Part shown: positions 13,618-22,850 of the stretch, in pieces | Layout of the letters: each line of letters begins with the position of its first letter | Numbering within the stretch: position 1 is the stretch's first letter | Assembly (NCBI RefSeq): GCF_053078305.1 | Contig: NZ_CP166879.1 | Direction: 5' to 3' (one strand) | DNA: 64,000 bases | Position numbers and translations under genes: made by a program | Notes under the pieces: generated by a model | What the model saw: only the letters and a program-made list of their open reading frames with translations | Database searches by the model: none | What the model was told of the DNA's origin: nothing

Positions 13618-13646
13618 AGCCCGCCGGTTCAGGCGGGCTTTTTTGT
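13618..13646 (+). terminator. Rho-independent terminator after lom
   Basis: CAGCCCGCC-GGTTCA-GGCGGGC hairpin followed by TTTTTTG. Confidence 0.7.
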
Positions 13647-13655
13647 GGGGTGAAT

Positions 13656-16600
13656 ATGGCAGTAAAGATTTCAGGTGTACTGAAAGACGGCACAGGAAAA
13701 CCGGTACAGAACTGCACAATCCAGCTGAAAGCAAAACGTAACAGCACCACGGTGGTGGTGAACACGCTGGCCTCAGAAAATCCGGATGAAGCCGGGCGTT
13801 ACAGCATGGACGTTGAGTACGGTCAGTACAGCGTTATTCTGTTGGTGGAAGGATTCCCGCCGTCACATGCCGGGACCATCACCGTGTATGAAGATTCTCA
13901 ACCCGGTACGCTGAATGATTTTCTCGGTGCCATGACGGAGGATGATGCCCGTCCGGAGGCACTGCGCCGTTTTGAACTGATGGTGGAAGAGGTGGCGCGT
14001 AACGCGTCCGTAGTGGCACAGAACACGGCAGCCGCGAAGAAGTCAGCCGGCGATGCCAGCACATCTGCCCGTGAGGCGGCAACCCATGCGACTGATGCTG
14101 CAGATTCAGCACGTGCAGCCAGCACGTCAGCCGGACAGGCCGCTTCGTCGGCTCAGTCAGCGTCTTCCAGCGCAGGAACGGCATCAACAAAGGCCACTGA
14201 AGCCTCAAAAAGTGCTGCCGCTGCAGAGTCCTCAAAAAGCGTGGCAGCTACCAGTGCCGGTGCGGCGAAAACGTCAGAAACGAATGCCGCAGCGTCAGAA
14301 CAATCAGCCGCCACTTCTGCATCCACCGCGACCACGAAAGCGTCAGAAGCTGCCACCTCAGCCCGGGATGCGGCGGCCTCAAAAGAGGCAGCGAAATCAT
14401 CAGAAACGAACGCATCCTTGAGCGCCAGTAGCGCAGCTTCCTCGGCAACGGCGGCAGGAAATTCCGCGAAGGCGGCAAAAACGTCCGAGACGAACGCCAG
14501 GTCTTCTGAGACGGCAGCGGGACAGAGCGCCTCAGCTGCGGCAGGCTCAAAAACAGCGGCTGCGTCGTCTGCCAGTGCCGCGTCAACAAGTGCCGGGCAG
14601 GCCTCAGCCAGTGCCACCGCCGCCGGAAAATCGGCAGAAAGCGCCGCATCATCCGCTTCAACAGCCACAACGAAGGCTGGCGAAGCCACTGAGCAGGCCA
14701 CGGCAGCAGCGAGGTCAGCTTCCGCAGCGAAGACATCCGAAACGAACGCGAAAGCGTCGGAAACCCGTGCAGAATCCTCAAAAACGGCAGCGGCATCGTC
14801 CGCCAGTTCGGCGGCGTCATCGGCATCATCGGCGTCTGCTTCAAAAGATGAGGCGACCAGACAGGCGTCAGCAGCGAAGGGCAGCGCCACGACGGCATCC
14901 ACGAAGGCGACAGAGGCTGCTGGTAGTGCGAAGGCAGCAGCTCAGAGCAAAAGTACGGCGGAATCTGCAGCAACGCGCGCTGAGACAGCGGCAAAACGGG
15001 CAGAGGATATTGCATCCGCCGTGGCACTTGAGGATGCGAGCACGACGAAAAAGGGGATAGTACAGCTCAGTAGTGCGACTAACAGCACTTCCGAGTCACT
15101 GGCGGCAACACCAAAAGCCGTTAAGGCCGCGTATGACCTGGCTAACGGGAAATACACCGCACAGGATGCAACGACAGCACAGAAAGGGATAATCCAGCTA
15201 AGCAGCGCGACCAACAGCACGTCTGAAACGCTGGCGGCAACGCCAAAGGCAGTAAAAGCAGCCAATGACAATGCTGAGAAACGTCTGCAGAAAGATCAGA
15301 ACGGTGCGGATATCCCTGGCAAAGACACCTTTACGAAAAATATTGGTGCCTGCCGTGCCTTCGGTGGGTCAGTAAGCACAACAACAGGAAACTGGACGAC
15401 TGCACAGTTTATCGAGTGGCTGGATTCTCAGGGAGCATTTAACCATCCATACTGGATGTGCAAGGGTTCCTGGTCTTATGGCAATAATAAAATCATTACT
15501 GATACTGGCTGCGGTAATATTCATCTCGCCGGAGCTGTCATTGAAGTAATGGGGATAAAGTCAGCGATGACGATCCGCATTACCACTCCGACCACATCCA
15601 GCGGTGGCGGAACAACCAACGCCCAGTTTACCTATATTAATCACGGAACAGATTATTCACCTGGCTGGCGAAGGGACTATAACTCCAGAAATAAGCCAAC
15701 GGCATCAGAGATCGGGGCGCTACCGTCAGGTGGAACAGCAGTATCATCAGTTAATCTGGCTTCAAAAGGTCGGGTAGCCGCGCTGACAGACAATACGCAG
15801 GGGGCAGCAGGTCTTGAGTTATACGAGGTGTATAACAACGGATATCCAACAACGTATGGAAATATCATTCACCTGAAAGGGATGACAGCCGTTGGCGAAG
15901 GTGAGTTACTCATCGGCTGGAGTGGTACAAGCGGTGCTCATGCTCCGGCATTTATTCGTTCACGACGGGATACGACCGACGCAAACTGGTCGCCGTGGGC
16001 GCAGCTTTACACCTCGGCTCATCCTCCTGCAGAGTTTTATCCAGTCGGTGCACCAATCCCGTGGCCATCAGATACCGTTCCGTCTGGTTATGCCCTGATG
16101 CAGGGGCAGACTTTTGACAAATCTGCATACCCGAAACTTGCAGCCGCTTATCCGTCAGGCGTGATCCCTGATATGCGTGGCTGGACGATTAAGGGCAAAC
16201 CTGCCAGTGGTCGGGCCGTATTGTCTCAGGAACAGGACGGCATTAAATCGCACACCCACAGCGCCAGCGCATCCAGTACGGATTTGGGGACGAAAACCAC
16301 ATCGTCGTTTGATTACGGCACTAAATCCACGAATAACATCGGGGCGCATACGCACAGTGTGAGCGGTACAGCCGCAAGTGCCGGAAACCATACTCATAGT
16401 GTCACAGGCGCATCAGCAGTCAGCCAGTGGTCACAAAATGGGTCAGTACATAAGGTAGTGTCTGCGGCCAGTGTGAATACAAGTGCTGCAGGAGCGCACA
16501 CTCATAGTGTCAGCGGCACAGCTGCATCTGCAGGTGCTCACGCACATACTGTCGGTATTGGTGCTCATACGCACTCGGTTGCGATTGGCTCACATGGACA

Positions 16601-16682
16601 CACCATCACCGTTAACGCTGCTGGTAACGCGGAAAACACCGTCAAAAACATCGCATTTAACTATATTGTGAGGCTTGCATAA
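13656..16682 (+). CDS. stf: Side tail fiber protein Stf, apparently intact, with Ala/Ser-rich repetitive shaft and His-rich C-terminal repeats
   Basis: ~1008-aa ORF; N-terminus [49 protein letters not shown]... and C-terminus ...[31 protein letters not shown] match K-12 StfR/lambda Stf family as recalled. Confidence 0.85.
14050..15010 (+). repeat. Low-complexity Ala/Ser/Thr-rich tandem repeats inside stf coding sequence
   Basis: Repeated motifs such as [19 protein letters not shown]; the run also generates long spurious ORFs on both strands (14153..14902 -, 14248..15027 -, 14575..15060 +). Confidence 0.7.
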
Positions 16683-17266
16683 TGGCATTCAGAATGAGTG
16701 AACAACCACGGACCATAAAAATTTATAATCTGCTGTCCGGAACTAATGAATTTATTGGTGAAGGTGATGCATATATTCCGCCTCATACAGGTCTGCCAGC
16801 AAACAGTACCGATATTGCACCGCCAGATATTCCGGCTGGTTTCGTGGCTGTTTTCAACAGTGATGAGTCATCGTGGCATCTCGTTGAAGATCATCGGGGT
16901 AAAACGGTTTATGACGTGGCTTCCGGCGACGCGTTATTTATTTCTGAACTCGGCTCATTACCGGAAAATGTCACCTGGTTATCCCCGGAAGGGGAGTTTC
17001 AGAAGTGGAACGGCACAGCCTGGGTGAAGGATACGGAAGCAGAAAAACTGTTCCGGATCCGGGAGGCGGAAGAAACAAAAAACAGCCTGATGCAGGTAGC
17101 CAGTGAGCATATAGCGCCGCTTCAGGATGCTGTGGATCTGGAGATCGCAACGGAGAAAGAAACCTTGTTGCTGGAAGCCTGGAAAAAGTATCGGGTGTTG
17201 CTGAACCGTGTTGATACATCAACTGCACCTGATATTGAGTGGCCTACGAACCCTGTCAGGGAGTAA
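16682..17266 (+). CDS. tfa: Tail fiber assembly protein Tfa
   Basis: 194-aa product [54 protein letters not shown]... matches the TfaR/Tfa family; start overlaps the stf stop. Confidence 0.88.
17101..17228 (+). repeat. Direct repeat copy 1 (tfa 3' end), roughly 85% identical to 18150..18277
   Basis: Sequences beginning CAGTGAGCATATAGCGCCGCTTCAGGATGCTGTGGATCTGGAGATCGCAACGGAG and CAGTGAGTATATTGCGCCACTGCAGGATGCTGTAGATCTGGAAATCGCAACGGAG align; identity is an eyeball estimate. Confidence 0.75.
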
Positions 17267-17320
17267 TCATTGGGATTATGCCGCAGCACGTCTTAAGCAA
17301 GAACGTGCTGCGGTTGGATG

Positions 17321-17989
17321 CTATTTTTTCCCTGAAGCGGAAAACATTACTACAGTACCTTGAACCTTGGTTTTAACATTCTCGAAATGCTCTGAGAGTA
17401 TATGTGTTAAGCCTTCTTCGGAATCTTTTGTGTTTGAAAAGATGCCTTTCTGATTGTAAATGCGCATCAGTTTTTGACCGAAGCTATTGTGCACAACTCC
17501 ATCGCCAAGAATTGTGGCTCCGTATAGAGTTCCATCGTCAGTTAAGGCCTGCGCCGCATTGCGTATTACACAGCTTTTTGTAGATATATTTCCAGGCAGG
17601 CAGTGAAGAAGGTAAAACATGGAAATGGAATCAAATTGACCATGTAACGCCGCGGGATAAGGTTCAAAAACATCATGGTTAATTTTATGTTTAATTTTTG
17701 ATTCCCCAGCCCTTGTAGATGCCGCGTTCAGGCTAGCTTCGTTCAAATCCATTAAAGATATCAGACTACTCTCAGGTACGTGAGTAAGGTAAAACCCAGT
17801 TCCAACACCAATATCCAGATGGTTGTTACCTAAATGTTCCAGAAAGTGTGGAAGAAGGTGTTCCTTTGTAGGACATCCCCATGCAAGCCGATTTGATACT
17901 CCCAAAACCCACCAGTCATAAAGCTTTAGGGTAAGTGGTGTGTAAATTTTAGCCCCATCATCTGTGTTTTTTTTCATTAATTTCACCAT
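17321..17989 (-). CDS. Class I SAM-dependent methyltransferase-like protein (resembles DLP12 ybcY family), prophage cargo
   Basis: 222-aa ORF with glycine-rich motif I (LDIGVGTGFY) typical of Rossmann-fold methyltransferases; AT-rich codon usage; lies between the two tfa-derived repeats. Confidence 0.65.
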   Translation of the reverse strand: MVKLMKKNTDDGAKIYTPLTLKLYDWWVLGVSNRLAWGCPTKEHLLPHFLEHLGNNHLDIGVGTGFYLTHVPESSLISLMDLNEASLNAASTRAGESKIKHKINHDVFEPYPAALHGQFDSISMFYLLHCLPGNISTKSCVIRNAAQALTDDGTLYGATILGDGVVHNSFGQKLMRIYNQKGIFSNTKDSEEGLTHILSEHFENVKTKVQGTVVMFSASGKK

Positions 17990-18149
17990 GTTATAGTTTT
18001 ATTTGTGAATTAAATCAATTATGGCGATGAATTACAAGGGGTTAAATGCTGCCGCAGCATAGCGATATTGAAATAGCATGGTATGCTTCGATACAGCAGG
18101 AGCCGAATGGCTGGAAGACCGTCACCACACAGTTCTACATCCAGGAATT

Positions 18150-18277
18150 CAGTGAGTATATTGCGCCACTGCAGGATGCTGTAGATCTGGAAATCGCAAC
18201 GGAGGAAGAAAGATCGTTGCTGGAGGCATGGAATAAATATCGGGTATTGTTGAATCGAGTTGATACATCAGTAGCTC
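18150..18277 (+). repeat. Direct repeat copy 2 (tfa 3' end remnant)
   Basis: See copy 1 at 17101..17228. Confidence 0.75.
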
Positions 18278-18351
18278 TGGGTATGAAGCTGTTTGTAACT
18301 CATGTTACAGTAACAGCCATTACTATCTCGAAGGTGCAAAATGTATATTGA
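18150..18351 (+). pseudogene. Tail fiber assembly gene remnant (tfaX-like 3' fragment)
   Basis: Translation ...[40 protein letters not shown] duplicates the Tfa C-terminus; no homologous N-terminal part. Confidence 0.6.
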
Positions 18352-18534
18352 TTTGATATTTTATAAATTTACTTCGAATCTGGCACGTCAACTTTTGATT
18401 AAAGTAATATCAGTTTTCGGCGAAAAAAGGACCGTGTACATGAGACGATTTCATACAAGAATAACAAAAATATGAATATGCTCCCAATGCAATATATGTT
18501 TTGCATTGGGAACAAATAGCGGAATATTTTGAAA

Positions 18535-20019
18535 TTATTGTATTTCTGCTTCAGAATTTCCTGGGCAGTATATATTTTCTGGTTTTTGTGGAGTGATCAG
18601 GTGATGTACAACTGCTTTATCTACACATAAATTAACTCCGGTGAGAGCTAATGTATGCCCATCACCATTTATTGTTAGTAACGGGCTGGAAAATTTCTCT
18701 GCCATCTTACGGGCATTAATCCAGGGCGTTGTTGGGTCGTATTTGTGTGCTACAAACAGTAAACCAGAGGGCAGAACAGTATTTTTCAGGCGAGTTTTGT
18801 TCAGGTCGCTATGTATTGGCCATAATTCACAAAAATCAGGTGAATCGGAACGTCCATTGTCAAAGTTAATAGCCGGGAAGGCATTCGCAAGAGCGTCTTT
18901 TCGGGATTTTCGCTCTTCTGGTGTTAATTGCTCATCCCCCTGATCTACACAGAGGATTACCCCCGAAGCATCGCTTGACTCTTCTGAGGCTATCGGAGCA
19001 CTGAGCGCAGTTTCAATTTCATTACTGACAATCCCCTGAGAGAACTGGCGTATGGCAGTTGCAAGGGTTGGCCATGATGAACGCCATAGCAGAAGGTCTG
19101 TTGTTAATGATATGAGTTCATCTGAAGATATATTTTCTCCCTTACTGTCTAATAAAGGTTTGTGATGTAATTTTGATAATAGCTCATGGAACTGAGTTAT
19201 TGCCTTATCTCTGTCTGAAGAAAGCGGGCAACTTTTTGTACGCGCACACCAGGATGCAAAGCGATCAAACGTTTCCTGATAACTCTGTGCCTGTTTGAGT
19301 TGCCATGTGAAGTTGTCCTCCAGGTCATCGATATCGACGACTCCATCAAGAACGATAGATCTTACGTTGTAGGGAAAACGTTCTGCATATAAGGCTGCAA
19401 TTTGAGTTCCATACGAATACGCCACGGCTGTCAGTTGTTTATCCCCCAAGGCTTGCCTAATACGATCAATATCGTATACAGCCTCGTTAGAGCCGATATG
19501 GCGAATGACTTCGGCTCCGGTATTATGGATACAGGCATTAATTTTATTTAATACTTGTTGCTTTTCGGTTATGTTTTCCTGAGTCTCTGTATCTGATTGC
19601 CGGCAGTTTATTGTCGGAGTGGACTGTCCGACGCCTCGAGGATCAAATCCAATAATATCCCATGACTCACGAAGATTTGTGACTGGCCAGTCAAAGTTAA
19701 TATAAGGATTTATGCCTGGTAACCCGGGACCACCACTTATTATCAGGATACTTCCTTTATGCTTGCTTTTTGCCGGCAATTTTGTCAACGCTAGTTTGAC
19801 TTGTGATTTTTTTTCATAAGAAGCATCTCCGCCTGTGTCTGTATATTTTAATGGAACAGACAAATAACCACATAGTAAGTCAGGAGACGGTTTTTCCTCA
19901 CCAAACCAGTGGTTGAATTGACTGGCCATACAGGATTGCCACTGTATCTGCTGGGCAGATACGGTTACTGGTAGAAGTAACGTTAAAACAACTTTGAAAT
20001 GAGTAATTATTTTTCGCAT
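18535..20019 (-). CDS. Secreted alpha/beta-hydrolase fold protein, likely S33-type (tripeptidyl aminopeptidase-like) peptidase/esterase; function unknown
   Basis: 494-aa ORF with N-terminal signal peptide MRKIITHFKVVLTLLLPVTVSAQQ, GFDPRGVGQS oxyanion-region motif and SYGT nucleophile-elbow-like motif; AT-rich. Confidence 0.65.
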   Translation of the reverse strand: MRKIITHFKVVLTLLLPVTVSAQQIQWQSCMASQFNHWFGEEKPSPDLLCGYLSVPLKYTDTGGDASYEKKSQVKLALTKLPAKSKHKGSILIISGGPGLPGINPYINFDWPVTNLRESWDIIGFDPRGVGQSTPTINCRQSDTETQENITEKQQVLNKINACIHNTGAEVIRHIGSNEAVYDIDRIRQALGDKQLTAVAYSYGTQIAALYAERFPYNVRSIVLDGVVDIDDLEDNFTWQLKQAQSYQETFDRFASWCARTKSCPLSSDRDKAITQFHELLSKLHHKPLLDSKGENISSDELISLTTDLLLWRSSWPTLATAIRQFSQGIVSNEIETALSAPIASEESSDASGVILCVDQGDEQLTPEERKSRKDALANAFPAINFDNGRSDSPDFCELWPIHSDLNKTRLKNTVLPSGLLFVAHKYDPTTPWINARKMAEKFSSPLLTINGDGHTLALTGVNLCVDKAVVHHLITPQKPENIYCPGNSEAEIQ

Positions 20020-20205
20020 TGTGTCTCTGAATATCGGAATAAAGATAAGATTTGAATATATTGAGGTCTTGTGTTGCGGTAAGAGATTACACGTTATGAC
20101 ATAGGTTAAATGCTTACAAAATTAGTGGATATTGCCTACTTGTAACTGTAAACAAATTCCCCGGGGTTATACAATACCACCGGGGAGAAAATCTGGTTAA
20201 CTTCG

Positions 20206-21159
20206 TTAAAAGGTGTACTTAAGACCAGCAGTAGTGATGAAGTTATAGTTTTCTATGCCTGCACCATTTTTGCTGTAGTCTGAAGTGTTATCATTGTGAT
20301 CATAAAGTGAAGTATTACCTTTTTTATTCGTAACCCGATTCCATGCGCCTTCAACATAAACCTTTGCGTTAGGTGTTACGTAATAACCTGCATTGACTGC
20401 AACAGAATAGTAATTTTGGTCTTTGACTTTACTGCGATAAGTGATTCTTTTTCCTGGGTCATAGTGCTCATCGTTATCAGATGCTTCCACCCAGCCGCTG
20501 TATTTAAATGTGCCACCTAGCTCAAAATCTTCATAACGATAACTTCCAGTCAAGCCAATGTAGGGCATTTTAAAACGTTGTTTGTAGCCGATTGCTCTTT
20601 CTCCATTCGGGAAGGAGCCGATATCATCTCTGAATCCCTCCTCAGAACTGTAGATATAGGAACCACCTCTGGCTGTAAAGCTATAACGGCTTTCCTGATA
20701 TCCGGCCATGAGTCCCAGGCGGTAATTGGGTTCGTTGAGGAGCCAGCCTTTGATATTCAGATCAAATTCGTTGGCATAATTGAGTTGTGTATCAGGGTGC
20801 CTACTTTCATCTGTCCAGGTTCCGGGGTTACTGGAATCCATCCAGTCCTGATCGACCATATTGCCACCTCGGCTGCCGAGAGTAGTCCAGCCCGCAGCCC
20901 CAATAGATATCTGGGGCATCAAATCCCAATTAATTGCACCTTTAATAATTGCAGCGTTATTGAATTTCCAGTCGAGTTGACTGACTTTTCGGCCTCCTTC
21001 TTCAGCTAGATAAACGCGCTCTTTTGTTTTTCCGCTCAGAGTTCCAAGACTAATGTCCGCATTTATGTTGTCAGGAGTAAACGATATAGTCTCGGTAGAA
21101 GCAAAAGAGCTGATCGCAATAGGGGTTGTCAGAACTATTCCCAGAAGTTTCGCCCGCAT
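20206..21159 (-). CDS. ompT: Omptin-family outer-membrane aspartyl protease, near-identical to OmpT
   Basis: 317-aa product MRAKLLGIVLTTPIAISSFASTETISFTPDNINADISLGTLSGKTKERVYLAEEGGRKVSQLDWKFNNAAIIKG... ending ...NFITTAGLKYTF, matching E. coli OmpT as recalled. Confidence 0.9.
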   Translation of the reverse strand: MRAKLLGIVLTTPIAISSFASTETISFTPDNINADISLGTLSGKTKERVYLAEEGGRKVSQLDWKFNNAAIIKGAINWDLMPQISIGAAGWTTLGSRGGNMVDQDWMDSSNPGTWTDESRHPDTQLNYANEFDLNIKGWLLNEPNYRLGLMAGYQESRYSFTARGGSYIYSSEEGFRDDIGSFPNGERAIGYKQRFKMPYIGLTGSYRYEDFELGGTFKYSGWVEASDNDEHYDPGKRITYRSKVKDQNYYSVAVNAGYYVTPNAKVYVEGAWNRVTNKKGNTSLYDHNDNTSDYSKNGAGIENYNFITTAGLKYTF

Positions 21160-21531
21160 AAAAGTTCTCCATTCAATCGTTTTAATGATTGAATATGTAT
21201 TTTTTATATCTAACTTAATGAGTCAATCACATATTGCTCCACTGTTTATATTTTGTTTAGTATTGAATGATTATCACAATGCGCTATCTGTTTTTGGTTT
21301 AATTATCTGTTATTGTTTTATGTTGCGGTTTTACTGTGTGGTTTTTTATGCTTTTGTGGTGTTTTTATCTATTTAAGCGCCATGCCTTTAAAGGCATATA
21401 AGCGAAAATAGCATGAGGTTTATCCTCAATTGCTATGTTTTTTAGTACAAAAAAGAGGGACAAAACTGAGACACACATAGCTTTGTACTGGATTGCAAGG
21501 CTTTGTGCTCTTCGATAGTGGTTAAGGCGGA

Positions 21532-22689
21532 TTACTCCACCTTCCCATCAAGCCAGTCCGCCCACCATTGCATCATTTCTCTGCGCTTATCGAGATACTG
21601 AGCATGGTTGTAAATTCCACGTACAGATCCGCCGTTGGCATGTGCCAGTTGCACTTCAATGGCGTCGGCAGGCCATTCGTGCTCGTTCATAATCGTGCTG
21701 AATTCATGCCTGAATCCGTGACCGCTTTCCAGACCTTCATAGCCGATTTGTTTGATCACAAGTAGCACCGCGTTCTCGCAGATTGGCTTCTTCTTATCGT
21801 TGCGCCCGGAAAAAACAAACTCTGATACTGGTTTAGTGATTGAGCTTAGTGTAGTGAGAAGTTCAACCACCTGGTCTGACATCGGGACAACATGAATTTT
21901 GCGTCCCTTCATCACATTGGCGTCGATGGTGATAATCCTGTTTTCAAAATCGACGTTCTTCCATAGCATGGAACGAAGCTCTTTTGTTCTGAGGGCTGTG
22001 TAGCGTAAAACTTTGGTCGCAATGAGCGATACGATGCTTCCTGAAAATGTTGCCAGTGCTTTGTTAAATGCCGGGATCTGGTCTGCAGGAAGAAACGGGA
22101 AGTTTTTCTTGCGGTATCCCTTCATGGCGTCAGCAAGGTCAGGTGCCGGGTTATATTTAGCCCTACCAGTGACAATAGCGTAACGGAAAACCTCGCCGCA
22201 TCTTCTGCGGGCTTTGTTGGCTCGCTCCATTGCACCGCGATCTTCAAATCTGCGGATTACTTCCAGCAGTTGCATCGGCTCAATATCCTGAATTTCAAGG
22301 CCGCCGATGATAGGTAAAATGTCGTCATCAAACATTTTTGCAAGTTCAGTTGCATAGCCTACTGACCAGACTTGCTTCTTGTGCTCGTACCATTCCTTGT
22401 AAATCGCACTAAAGGAATTGTTGTTAGACGAAGCCTTTTTCGCTTTTACCGGATCGATGCCAACCGAGATGTCTTTCCTCGCGGTCCATGCTTTATCTCT
22501 TGCCTCCTGCAAAGTCATAAGCGGATATTTTCCTACGGTCAGGATTTTCTCCTTACCGTCAATCTTGTAGCGAAGCTGCCATACCTTTTTCCCTGACACA
22601 GGGACATAAAGGTACAGGCCATTACCATCGAGTAGGCGGTATGGTTTTTCTTTCGGCTTTGCTGCTTCAATCTGCTTAACGGTGAGCAT
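21532..22689 (-). CDS. intS: Prophage tyrosine integrase (IntS/P4-like family)
   Basis: Product MLTVKQIEAAKPKEKPYRLLDGNGLYLYVPVSGKKVWQLRYKIDGKEK... with C-terminal catalytic region (..HGFRHEF..., ..RGIYNHAQY..); adjacent to tRNA; start chosen at the MLTVKQ Met (ORF track extends to 22725). Confidence 0.88.
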   Translation of the reverse strand: MLTVKQIEAAKPKEKPYRLLDGNGLYLYVPVSGKKVWQLRYKIDGKEKILTVGKYPLMTLQEARDKAWTARKDISVGIDPVKAKKASSNNNSFSAIYKEWYEHKKQVWSVGYATELAKMFDDDILPIIGGLEIQDIEPMQLLEVIRRFEDRGAMERANKARRRCGEVFRYAIVTGRAKYNPAPDLADAMKGYRKKNFPFLPADQIPAFNKALATFSGSIVSLIATKVLRYTALRTKELRSMLWKNVDFENRIITIDANVMKGRKIHVVPMSDQVVELLTTLSSITKPVSEFVFSGRNDKKKPICENAVLLVIKQIGYEGLESGHGFRHEFSTIMNEHEWPADAIEVQLAHANGGSVRGIYNHAQYLDKRREMMQWWADWLDGKVE

Positions 22690-22850
22690 GGGTAAAAATC
22701 CGGTGGGTAAAATTATTTTATCCACTTTTTACCCGTCATGGAGTGCGGCTGTCAACGATCTGAAGCGAACCATGACGAACTGTGAATCTACGGAAGGCTT
22801 GATATTCAGGGGATTTTGCGGACTGGTACGGATGGAGGCGAACTGATAAA

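Follow-up and report, generated by a model that had tools for sequence, protein, structure and literature searches.

The window analysed here, a 64,000-nucleotide stretch of contig NZ_CP166879.1 (RefSeq assembly GCF_053078305.1), begins inside a prophage in which J, lom, stf and tfa follow one another in the canonical lambda order, as judged from the open reading frames (ORFs), Pfam profiles and a collinear locus in E. coli 2022H047 (Table 1). In the ORF listing stf is one unbroken frame with no internal stops, opening with an ATG at 13656 and closing with a TAA at 16680-16682; a GTG lies in frame at 13650. On its 5' side are a GGGGTGA ribosome-binding site and, after lom, a hairpin resembling an intrinsic terminator (13618-13639), while the start codon of tfa overlaps the stf stop (TAATG). 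A single intact Stf ORF of about 1008 aa followed by tfa, as given in a preliminary description of this DNA, is borne out. Downstream of tfa the window contains a methyltransferase gene, a 3' fragment of tfa on the same strand, a hydrolase gene and an omptin gene. Long ORFs inside the shaft-coding part of stf, at 14153-14902 (-), 14248-15027 (-) and 14575-15060 (+), were not counted as genes. These antisense and out-of-frame ORFs are by-products of the GC-rich run of Ala and Ser codons, the GC content of the shaft being 61.8% against 51.6% for the window.

Table 1. Genes and stf protein segments, with coordinates in the window; residue ranges refer to the stf protein.
Feature	Coordinates	Strand	Residues	Basis
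J, central tail fibre/host-specificity protein	9527..12925	+	1132 aa	ORF; gpJ in the collinear 2022H047 locus
lom, Ail/Lom outer-membrane protein	12992..13591	+		PF06316 (E 2e-121); adjoins stf upstream as in lambda
stf, side tail fibre gene	13656..16682	+	1008 aa	ORF, Pfam and identical copies
StfN anchor domain	13656..13937	+	1-94	Match to PDB 9e7m, lambda tail fibre protein (E 3.9e-52)
Shaft, about 51 unbroken heptads	13956..15035	+	101-460	Consensus (T/S)-S-A-(T/S)-x-A-x
Two Phage_fiber_2 repeats	15039..15293	+	462-502 and about 506-546	PF03406, two stretches
Central module	15270..16034	+	539-793	Homology to variable parts of the invertible Mu, P1 and P7 fibres and to P2 gpH
gp37-type collar domain	16035..16250	+	794-865	PF07484 (aa 798-845); match to PDB 2XGF
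gp37-type needle with seven HxH motifs	16251..16679	+	866-1008	Homology to 2XGF and HxH register
Hypervariable tip cassette, 33 aa, His-poor, between HxH 3 and 4	16398..16496	+	915-947	Allele alignments
tfa, tail fibre assembly chaperone	16682..17266	+	194 aa	PF02413 (E 1.3e-44); 93% identical to lambda Tfa

The stf product is very probably a side tail fibre of the lambda/StfR family, a homotrimeric accessory adhesin of a lambdoid siphophage whose mechanism can be read from its homologues. Nothing found spoke against this identity, which was also that of the preliminary description. The Pfam profiles matched are PF08400, PF03406 (twice), PF07484 and PF03335, and the first of these (phage_tail_N) is matched over its full length, profile positions 1-134, with an E-value of 5.3e-72. 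Ur-lambda Stf (774 aa) is 81% identical over aa 1-352, with StfN at ~95% and the tip at 68%. In that protein StfN comprises residues 1-91, followed by a linker (92-101) and a proximal coiled coil (102-393), and four trimers per virion make adsorption faster (PMC12617516). StfR (b1372, 1120 aa), from the cryptic prophage Rac in E. coli K-12, is closer still in its proximal half: anchor, linker, a 349-aa shaft of equal length and the first fibre repeat are ~98% identical (aa 1-493). Overall its identity is 89% over aa 1-565, interrupted chiefly by a gap of 44 aa, and 80% over aa 766-1008, which takes in the collar and needle. Rac also shares the order lom-stf-tfa, and its fibre carries the same seven HxH motifs.

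After a short linker, the shaft keeps one heptad register unchanged throughout. Autocorrelation gave z values of 7.5-10.7 at each multiple of seven and below 2.3 at every other lag, and the spectral power of Ala peaks at a period of 3.5. Ala occupies position 5 in 92% and position 2 in 67% of heptads, with Ser at position 1 in 71%. This periodicity fits a coiled coil of the type expected for the family, predicted to be trimeric and ~53 nm long. The earlier placing of an Ala/Ser/Thr-rich shaft at 14050-15010 holds, with these three residues making up 68-80% of each 50-aa bin over aa 151-450. The tandem-repeat analysis proposed with it yielded no real DNA repeat. Tandem Repeats Finder, run on 13000-18000 with a minimum score of 30, returned nothing meaningful, only two arrays of ~2 copies in the shaft (scores 37-43). 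The repetition is a heptad periodicity of the protein, written in mixed codons, rather than a tandem repeat in the DNA. A tendency of the shaft to vary in length was equally well founded. Relatives have shafts of 237, 244, 300, 335 and 349 aa, and the differences, compared in 120 homologues out of roughly 4700, point to changes mostly by whole heptads; the lambda shaft, which shares the consensus, is shorter by 105 aa or 15 heptads.

Between shaft and tip, the protein departs from both Ur-lambda Stf and StfR. The two fibre repeats are reflected in the DNA as a direct repeat, at 15031-15137 and 15163-15269, whose copies are 74% identical and set at a spacing of 132 nt. Ur-lambda Stf, StfR and the fibre of phage PhiR29_1 each have a single Phage_fiber_2 repeat, the window protein exceeding StfR and PhiR29_1 by a unit of 44 aa or 132 nt; a 44-aa alignment gap falls at the second repeat against StfR, PhiR29_1 and 2H10. 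The central module matches PDB 8ju3, a Mu S,S' chimera, over aa 539-722 (E 9e-69), and the protein also matches Mu S (PDB 5yvq). The identity of the module is 73% to P1 Sv', 72% to P7 Sv and 82% to P2 gpH, the last over the first 149 aa. Lambda lacks such a module, whereas StfR and 2H10 have an unrelated one in place of the Mu/P1 Sv'-like segment (~350 aa in StfR against ~200 aa here). By its homologies the stf protein is a mosaic of four known parts, namely StfN, the heptad shaft, the repeats with a Mu/P1/P2-like centre, and a gp37-type tip. The preliminary description had named this gene a recombination hotspot; the visible mosaicism fits frequent recombination, and exchange between lambda and Rac across stf-tfa has been shown by experiment (PMC3945230).

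The tip (aa 794-1008) matches the solved tip of T4 gp37 (PDB 2XGF) with an E-value of 4.2e-87. The alignment joins aa 795-1008 to gp37 aa 813-1026 at 68-69% identity and includes the collar, which is 84% identical to that of T4 and 99% to that of StfR; over its last 45 aa the protein hardly differs from T4, and N-terminal to the collar it bears no relation to gp37. HxH motifs lie at aa 866, 898, 912, 948, 962, 971 and 980, in register with H883, H915, H929, H966, H980, H989 and H998 of gp37, so that all seven iron-site motifs of T4 are present. The last 150 aa contain 15 His, 14 of them in these motifs. Shuffled versions of this stretch held 1.4 HxH on average, and seven were reached in none of 20000. 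Lambda has eight, through a 9-aa duplication, and an extra SFDYGTK repeat. The His-rich repeats of the preliminary description are real in this looser sense: G(A/S)HTHSV(S/T)G as written there has just two copies (aa 896 and 946), the form G.H.H[ST][VIAG] six. The T4 gp37 tip, reportedly described as a six-stranded antiparallel needle by Bartual et al. in 2010, is the closest solved homologue. It consists of a collar and an iron-containing needle with seven coordinated iron atoms along its length, and the histidines of the HxH motifs lie buried in the core of that needle as iron ligands (PMC6957217). At 68% identity to 2XGF, the window tip would likewise form an intertwined trimer, with the HxH motifs as conserved structural metal sites.

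Sequence variation among alleles is concentrated elsewhere, in the cassette at aa 915-947. Its identity to T4, lambda, StfR and PhiR68_2 is 21-36% (21% for T4, 24% for lambda, whose cassette is 12 aa longer, and 36% for StfR), whereas the flanks reach 73-99%. In PhiR68_2, 47 of the 55 differences from the window protein fall within aa 901-950. The equivalent residues of T4 gp37, 932-953, were mapped by mutagenesis as LPS/OmpC contacts (PMC6957217), and the cassette is likely the receptor-contact segment. Of the T4 contact residues W936, N937, G938, G940, G942, G943, S947 and Y949, only S947 is kept (S930 here), and those critical for LPS/OmpC (W936, G938, G940, G942, G943 and Y949) are all replaced. 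Therefore the receptor of T4 or lambda is not transferable to this fibre; as judged from the alignments, membership of the gp37 fold family holds and receptor identity does not follow from it.

Taken along its length, the fibre would be docked by StfN where gpV and gpM meet on the tail tube. Next, a flexible linker and the ~51-heptad coiled coil, with its Ala/Ser core, would serve as the ~53 nm spacer, joined to the tip by the two fibre repeats and the Mu/P1 Sv'-like module. Along the trimer axis of the tip, with its collar and needle, each chain may coordinate metal ions (iron in the case of T4) through its seven HxH pairs. The chain would turn back at the distal end, presenting aa 915-947 as the receptor-contact surface. 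Tfa would act as the folding chaperone of the tip; it is of the lambda type, unlike the gp38 of T4. Fast, reversible primary adsorption through the fibre would come ahead of J binding its own receptor. The gene itself probably arose through homologous recombination where the borders between modules are conserved, its shaft changing in length by whole heptads.

In the preliminary description the tip was a receptor-binding beta-helix built of the His-rich repeats, and receptor specificity was ascribed to these repeats and the shaft. The repeats do lie within the C-terminal 143 aa and one of them is matched by PF03335 ('Phage tail fibre repeat'), but this reading is very improbable. The homologous solved structure buries the same histidines as metal ligands, and no beta-helix or pectate-lyase family occurs among the Pfam profile matches of the protein. 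Among alleles that differ in the tip, moreover, conservation is highest at the HxH motifs, and the shaft is ~98% identical between fibres with unrelated distal modules, which argues against either as the specificity determinant. OmpC as the receptor, as for T4 gp37 and as described for Ur-lambda Stf (PMC12617516), is a better-placed suggestion and still a rather unlikely one: the collar and needle scaffold is common to these two OmpC binders, yet the contact cassette has only 21-24% identity to theirs and the T4-critical residues are replaced. The receptors of gp37-type tips include a range of porins as well as LPS. Conceivably, though again somewhat doubtfully, the cassette could set a specificity other than the OmpC/LPS of lambda and T4 and, as a separate matter, shaft length could be a selected 'reach' trait. 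In that case the heptad polymorphism would be matched to the thickness of the surface layer instead of reflecting neutral slippage.

The kinship of the central module with Mu Sv' and P1 Sv' raises the question of whether a DNA invertase switches the fibre between two alternative C-terminal halves, as in the Mu G, P1 C and e14 P segments. A Pin-type recombinase gene does directly follow tfa in E. coli 2022H047, PhiR68_2, 2H10 and Rac (pinR after tfaR), but none is present after tfa in the window. The junction of constant and variable parts at aa 561-566 has no gix/cix-like core, and the sequence ACGAAAAATATTGGTGCCTGC at this junction contains no AAACCNNGGTTT core of a Gin/Cin/Pin crossover site. 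Window-wide there are five near matches to AAACCNNGGTTT, within chance expectation, and the sole one near stf is at 17362. Long inverted repeats around stf are lacking, the search around stf-tfa returning just one 21-nt pair with 81% complementarity, which was treated as chance. Of the features of the invertase-switched fibres Mu S/S', P1 S/S' and e14 StfE, only the homologous central module is found here, and such a switch is so improbable as to be nearly negligible. A different matter is whether the fibre can be mounted. In this prophage the tape-measure gene H is frameshifted: compared with an intact gene 99.88% identical to it, H lacks one nucleotide at about position 5212, and its ORFs at 4564-5253 and 5214-7124 jointly span 2561 nt instead of 2562 nt. 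With that nucleotide in place H would encode an 853-aa tape-measure protein. If the deletion is real, tails cannot form and the fibre has nothing to be mounted on; stf would then persist, like stfR, mainly as a module for infecting lambdoid phages to acquire through recombination. K-12 StfR is likewise intact within a cryptic prophage, and lambda picks up stf-tfa DNA from Rac by recombination (PMC3945230). However, the G is missing from a GG dinucleotide, where its loss may simply be an error of sequencing, and the remaining tail genes seen in the part of the prophage that the window covers are all full length. A defective prophage is possible, if the less probable case, and it bears on deployment, not on what stf encodes.

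As a lambda/StfR-family side tail fibre, stf is an ordinary gene of a known kind, with near-unchanged copies in hundreds of E. coli genomes. Earlier publications already cover the family and its mosaicism with Mu, P1, P2 and T4 fibres, as well as the iron needle with its HxH motifs and the chaperone Tfa. The practical value of stf lies in fibre engineering, for which it is a natural example with annotated parts. Clean module borders follow StfN and fall at the fibre repeats, the collar, HxH 3 and HxH 4; a putative specificity cassette of only 33 aa sits on a conserved scaffold, and the heptad steps in shaft length are useful to such work. It also corrects a tempting misreading, as the conspicuous His repeats appear to be structural and not a specificity determinant.

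Two complete genomes, those of E. coli 2022H047 and 2022H048, contain stf with 100% identity under the annotation 'prophage tail fiber N-terminal domain-containing protein', and among 5426 complete E. coli genomes 638 have a near-full-length copy. The cassette, a discrete allele, recurs with at least 99% identity in about 750 of the same 5426 genomes (~14%). The whole 13000-24000 stretch is unbroken in none of the complete E. coli genomes in the collection, the best reaching 92% coverage in four pieces. Among phages, PhiR29_1, PhiR29_2, Salmonella phage SPF_0923 and PhiR68_2 have stf DNA 97-99% identical over 95-100% of the gene. A literature search for accounts of the fibres or receptors of the PhiR phage panel turned up only one study making passing use of the panel. 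PhiR29_1, PhiR29_2, SPF_0923 and 2H10 share the tip allele of the window at no less than 98.6% identity, whereas PhiR68_2 has a different cassette, 15 aa longer. The plaque-forming PhiR29_1 and PhiR29_2 have a tip 99.5% identical and the same downstream gene order as in the window; the fibre of PhiR29_1, at 964 aa, differs in lacking the second fibre repeat.

The side tail fibre gene stf of the lambda-like prophage encodes 1008 aa from its ATG in one uninterrupted frame and is followed by the tail fibre assembly chaperone gene tfa, as the preliminary description had stated; an internal stop was looked for and none was found. A GTG lies in frame two codons 5' of the ATG, and GGGGTGA forms the ribosome-binding site. 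The gene identity proposed earlier was borne out by alignment. N-terminally, Ur-lambda Stf (774 aa) is 81% identical to the window Stf across aa 1-352, and StfR (1120 aa), the side tail fibre of the cryptic Rac prophage of K-12, is 89% identical over aa 1-565, with one 44-aa gap making up nearly all of the difference. In the tip, identity is 68% for Ur-lambda Stf and 80% for StfR (aa 766-1008), and the StfR segment between aa 565 and 766 is unrelated. The lambda and window Tfa proteins are 93% identical. These pairwise matches, four Pfam families and four kinds of solved-chain match identify stf, by sequence, as a member of the lambda Stf/StfR family, whose product combines four modules, each known already from other phages.

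Features of the stf region (window positions) and of Stf (aa numbers); segment identities are those of the window Stf to T4, lambda, StfR and PhiR68_2
Feature	Position	Strand	Remarks
J (central tail fibre/host specificity)	9527-12925		upstream of lom and stf
lom	12992-13591		directly before stf; product matches Ail/Lom outer-membrane family (Pfam)
stf	13656-16682	+	1008 aa
tfa	16682-17266		194 aa; ATG overlapped by stf TAA stop; Caudo_TAP chaperone (Pfam)
ybcY-like class I SAM methyltransferase	17321-17989	-	between tfa and tfa 3' fragment
tfa 3' fragment	18046-18351	+	101 aa
Secreted alpha/beta hydrolase	18535-20019	-	494 aa; cargo gene
Omptin (OmpT-like protease)	20206-21159	-	317 aa; cargo gene
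Prophage tail fibre N-terminal domain	aa 1-134		PF08400; E 5e-72
Lambda tail-fibre N-terminus	aa 1-94		9e7m; E 4e-52
Phage_fiber_2			PF03406; two repeats in Stf (Pfam)
Phage Mu fibre protein S	aa 489-568		5yvq
Mu S,S' chimera	aa 539-722		8ju3; E 9e-69
T4 gp37 receptor-binding tip	aa 794-1008		2xgf; E 4e-87
Tail Collar domain	aa 798-845		PF07484 (Pfam)
Phage_fiber repeat			PF03335; 14 aa, on one HxH unit (Pfam)
Collar			identity 84-99%
Descending needle			identity 73-90%
Cassette between HxH 3 and HxH 4	aa 915-947		33 aa; identity 21-36%
Ascending needle			identity 77-98%

The last 150 residues of Stf contain 15 His, 14 of which lie in seven HxH motifs; shuffling these residues gave a mean of 1.4, and seven was reached in 0 of 20000 trials. 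The His repeats reported earlier are real, but the literal G(A/S)HTHSV(S/T)G motif occurs only twice, with a looser G.H.H[ST][VIAG] present six times. The last 250-260 aa of the window Stf were aligned with those of lambda Stf, StfR, T4 gp37, the fibres of phages PhiR68_2 and PhiR29_1, and 2H10, a relative with the same tip allele. All seven motifs (window aa 866, 898, 912, 948, 962, 971 and 980) occupy shared columns, which in gp37 hold H883, H915, H929, H966, H980, H989 and H998, and lambda has an eighth through a 9-aa duplication. Between the window Stf and PhiR68_2, 47 of the 55 whole-protein differences fall within aa 901-950. The T4 residues homologous to the cassette form the tip subdomain, where iron is bound by H929 and H931; seven iron atoms line the needle, and LPS/OmpC recognition needs W936, N937, G938, G940, G942, G943, S947 and Y949 (PMC6957217). 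Only S947 of these contact residues is kept in the window Stf, and neither T4 nor lambda allows the receptor of the cassette to be inferred.

The retained HxH register, the divergent cassette and the T4 tip data together argue that the His repeats would bind metal as conserved structural ligands and do not determine specificity, which most likely resides in the cassette. The preliminary description had instead envisaged a beta-helix-type tip with His-rich repeats setting specificity. Neither proposal held, as the tip is homologous to the T4 gp37 needle and is predicted to share that fold rather than a beta-helix, and the HxH motifs keep their columns across the alignment while variation falls in the cassette. 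The cassette forms a discrete allele: a 121-nt probe for it matched 747 records at an identity of at least 99%, about 750 of 5426 genomes, with hardly any matches of intermediate identity.

Ala, Ser and Thr make up 68-80% of each 50-aa bin across aa 151-450, and the composition of both this middle region and the His-rich C-terminus is as first described. Tandem Repeats Finder gave no array of any note for the shaft, which is thus not tandemly repeated as DNA; its repetition lies in the protein sequence. Across aa 101-460, the autocorrelation of residues exceeds that of shuffled controls by 7.5-10.7 SD at all lags divisible by 7, up to 119, and stays below 2.3 SD at the other lags, with an Ala spectral peak at period 3.5. 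The heptad register is constant across aa 101-460 without a shift, with Ala in 92% of heptads at position 5 and 67% at position 2, and Ser in 71% at position 1. Such periodicity is characteristic of an uninterrupted coiled coil that has an Ala core, here with an estimated length of ~53 nm (360 residues at ~0.148 nm per residue). DNA repeat finders miss it because codon use is mixed; in the DNA itself, the only trace is a 26-nt motif for the peptide AAKTSETNA, present five times at intervals of 126, 84, 252 and 231 nt, each divisible by 21. The GC content of the shaft is 61.8% vs. 51.6% for the window. Stop-free frames of 249, 259 and 161 aa overlap the shaft on both strands (14153-15060) and are attributed to the GC-rich Ala/Ser codon run rather than to genes.

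Measured from motif MVEEVxRN to LED(A/S)..KG, the shaft is 349 aa in both the window Stf and StfR, and 244 aa in lambda, 105 aa (15 heptads) shorter. Among the 120 best database homologues, lengths of 349 (n=82), 237 (n=26), 244 (n=2), 300 (n=1) and 335 (n=1) were found, differing from 349 by multiples of 7, alongside off-heptad singletons of 319, 320 and 331; length could not be measured in five. The suggestion of a length-variable shaft is supported by these homologues and can be refined, in that changes are mostly of whole heptads. We infer that in-register unequal recombination lies behind these steps.

Relatives share different parts of the window Stf. StfR and 2H10 have aa 1-565 and 766-1008 in common with it but not the centre, PhiR68_2 all except the tip cassette, and PhiR29_1 all except the second fibre repeat. 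P1 Sv', P7 Sv, Mu Sv' and P2 gpH share the central module only, and T4 the collar and needle only. Module borders lie on conserved sequence (the fibre repeat, a KDQNGADIP segment and the collar), a pattern that homologous recombination would produce. Direct measurements of lambda x Rac recombination across stf-tfa have been published (PMC3945230), and with the mosaic borders they support the recombination claimed earlier. A role for stf in an invertase switch like Mu G/P1 C was rejected: a crossover-site core of that type is absent from the stf junction, no inverted duplicate was found around the gene, and no recombinase follows tfa in the window, unlike in several close relatives, where a pin gene does.

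The window opens within the prophage head genes. The tape-measure gene H (4564-7124) is broken into ORFs at 4564-5253 (229 aa) and 5214-7124 (636 aa). It is 99.88% identical to the intact 2562-nt, 853-codon gene of E. coli 2022H047, a genome with a collinear locus, and lacks one G near 5212 (TCCGGCG to TCC-GCG). This loss may be a genuine frameshift that inactivates H, or it may stem from a sequencing error. If real, the prophage would build no tails and the intact stf would be an unused but exchangeable module, like stfR in Rac; if an error, a functional fibre is probable, as in PhiR29_1/2. Between lom and stf is a strong terminator-like hairpin (13618-13639; eight pairs, seven GC, then a T6 run), only ~16 nt ahead of the start codon, and late transcription must read through it for stf-tfa expression.

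The exact stf allele is common. Two complete E. coli genomes carry it at 100% identity, 65 records match it at 99% or better, and 638 of the 5426 complete genomes contain at least 80% of its length. In the phage collection, fibres of SPF_0923, PhiR29_1/2, PhiR68_2, PhiR26_1 and mEp460 match it at 97-99% identity; the PhiR phages, relatives of lambda, are in use as a panel of plaque-forming phages. With aa 1-470 as query, a word-indexed search retrieved 4666 proteins at E <=1e-20. The Stf findings are all of described kinds (Ur-lambda Stf, StfR, the gp37 tip and tail-fibre mosaicism), and the earlier interpretation stands for gene identity, length variation and recombination, but not for the fold or the residues setting specificity.

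The right arm, running from tfa through the methyltransferase, tfa fragment and hydrolase to the omptin gene, is collinear in PhiR29_1, including the methyltransferase and tfa-fragment arrangement. Within the fragment, nt 18139-18270 match nt 17090-17221 of tfa at 83% identity. The methyltransferase and fragment look like what a past replacement of the stf-tfa module would leave behind, a scar enclosing a cargo gene, and they resemble ybcY-tfaX of K-12 DLP12. Phage homology stops at ~21300-21500, where an intS/yfdC-type neighbourhood follows. A macro-domain gene, absent from the window, separates a 99.6%-identical stf from its tfa in several E. coli genomes; the annotation of E. coli C8 (NZ_CP010125.1, locus 6024-6926) lists this gene as a pseudogene, interrupted by an internal stop.
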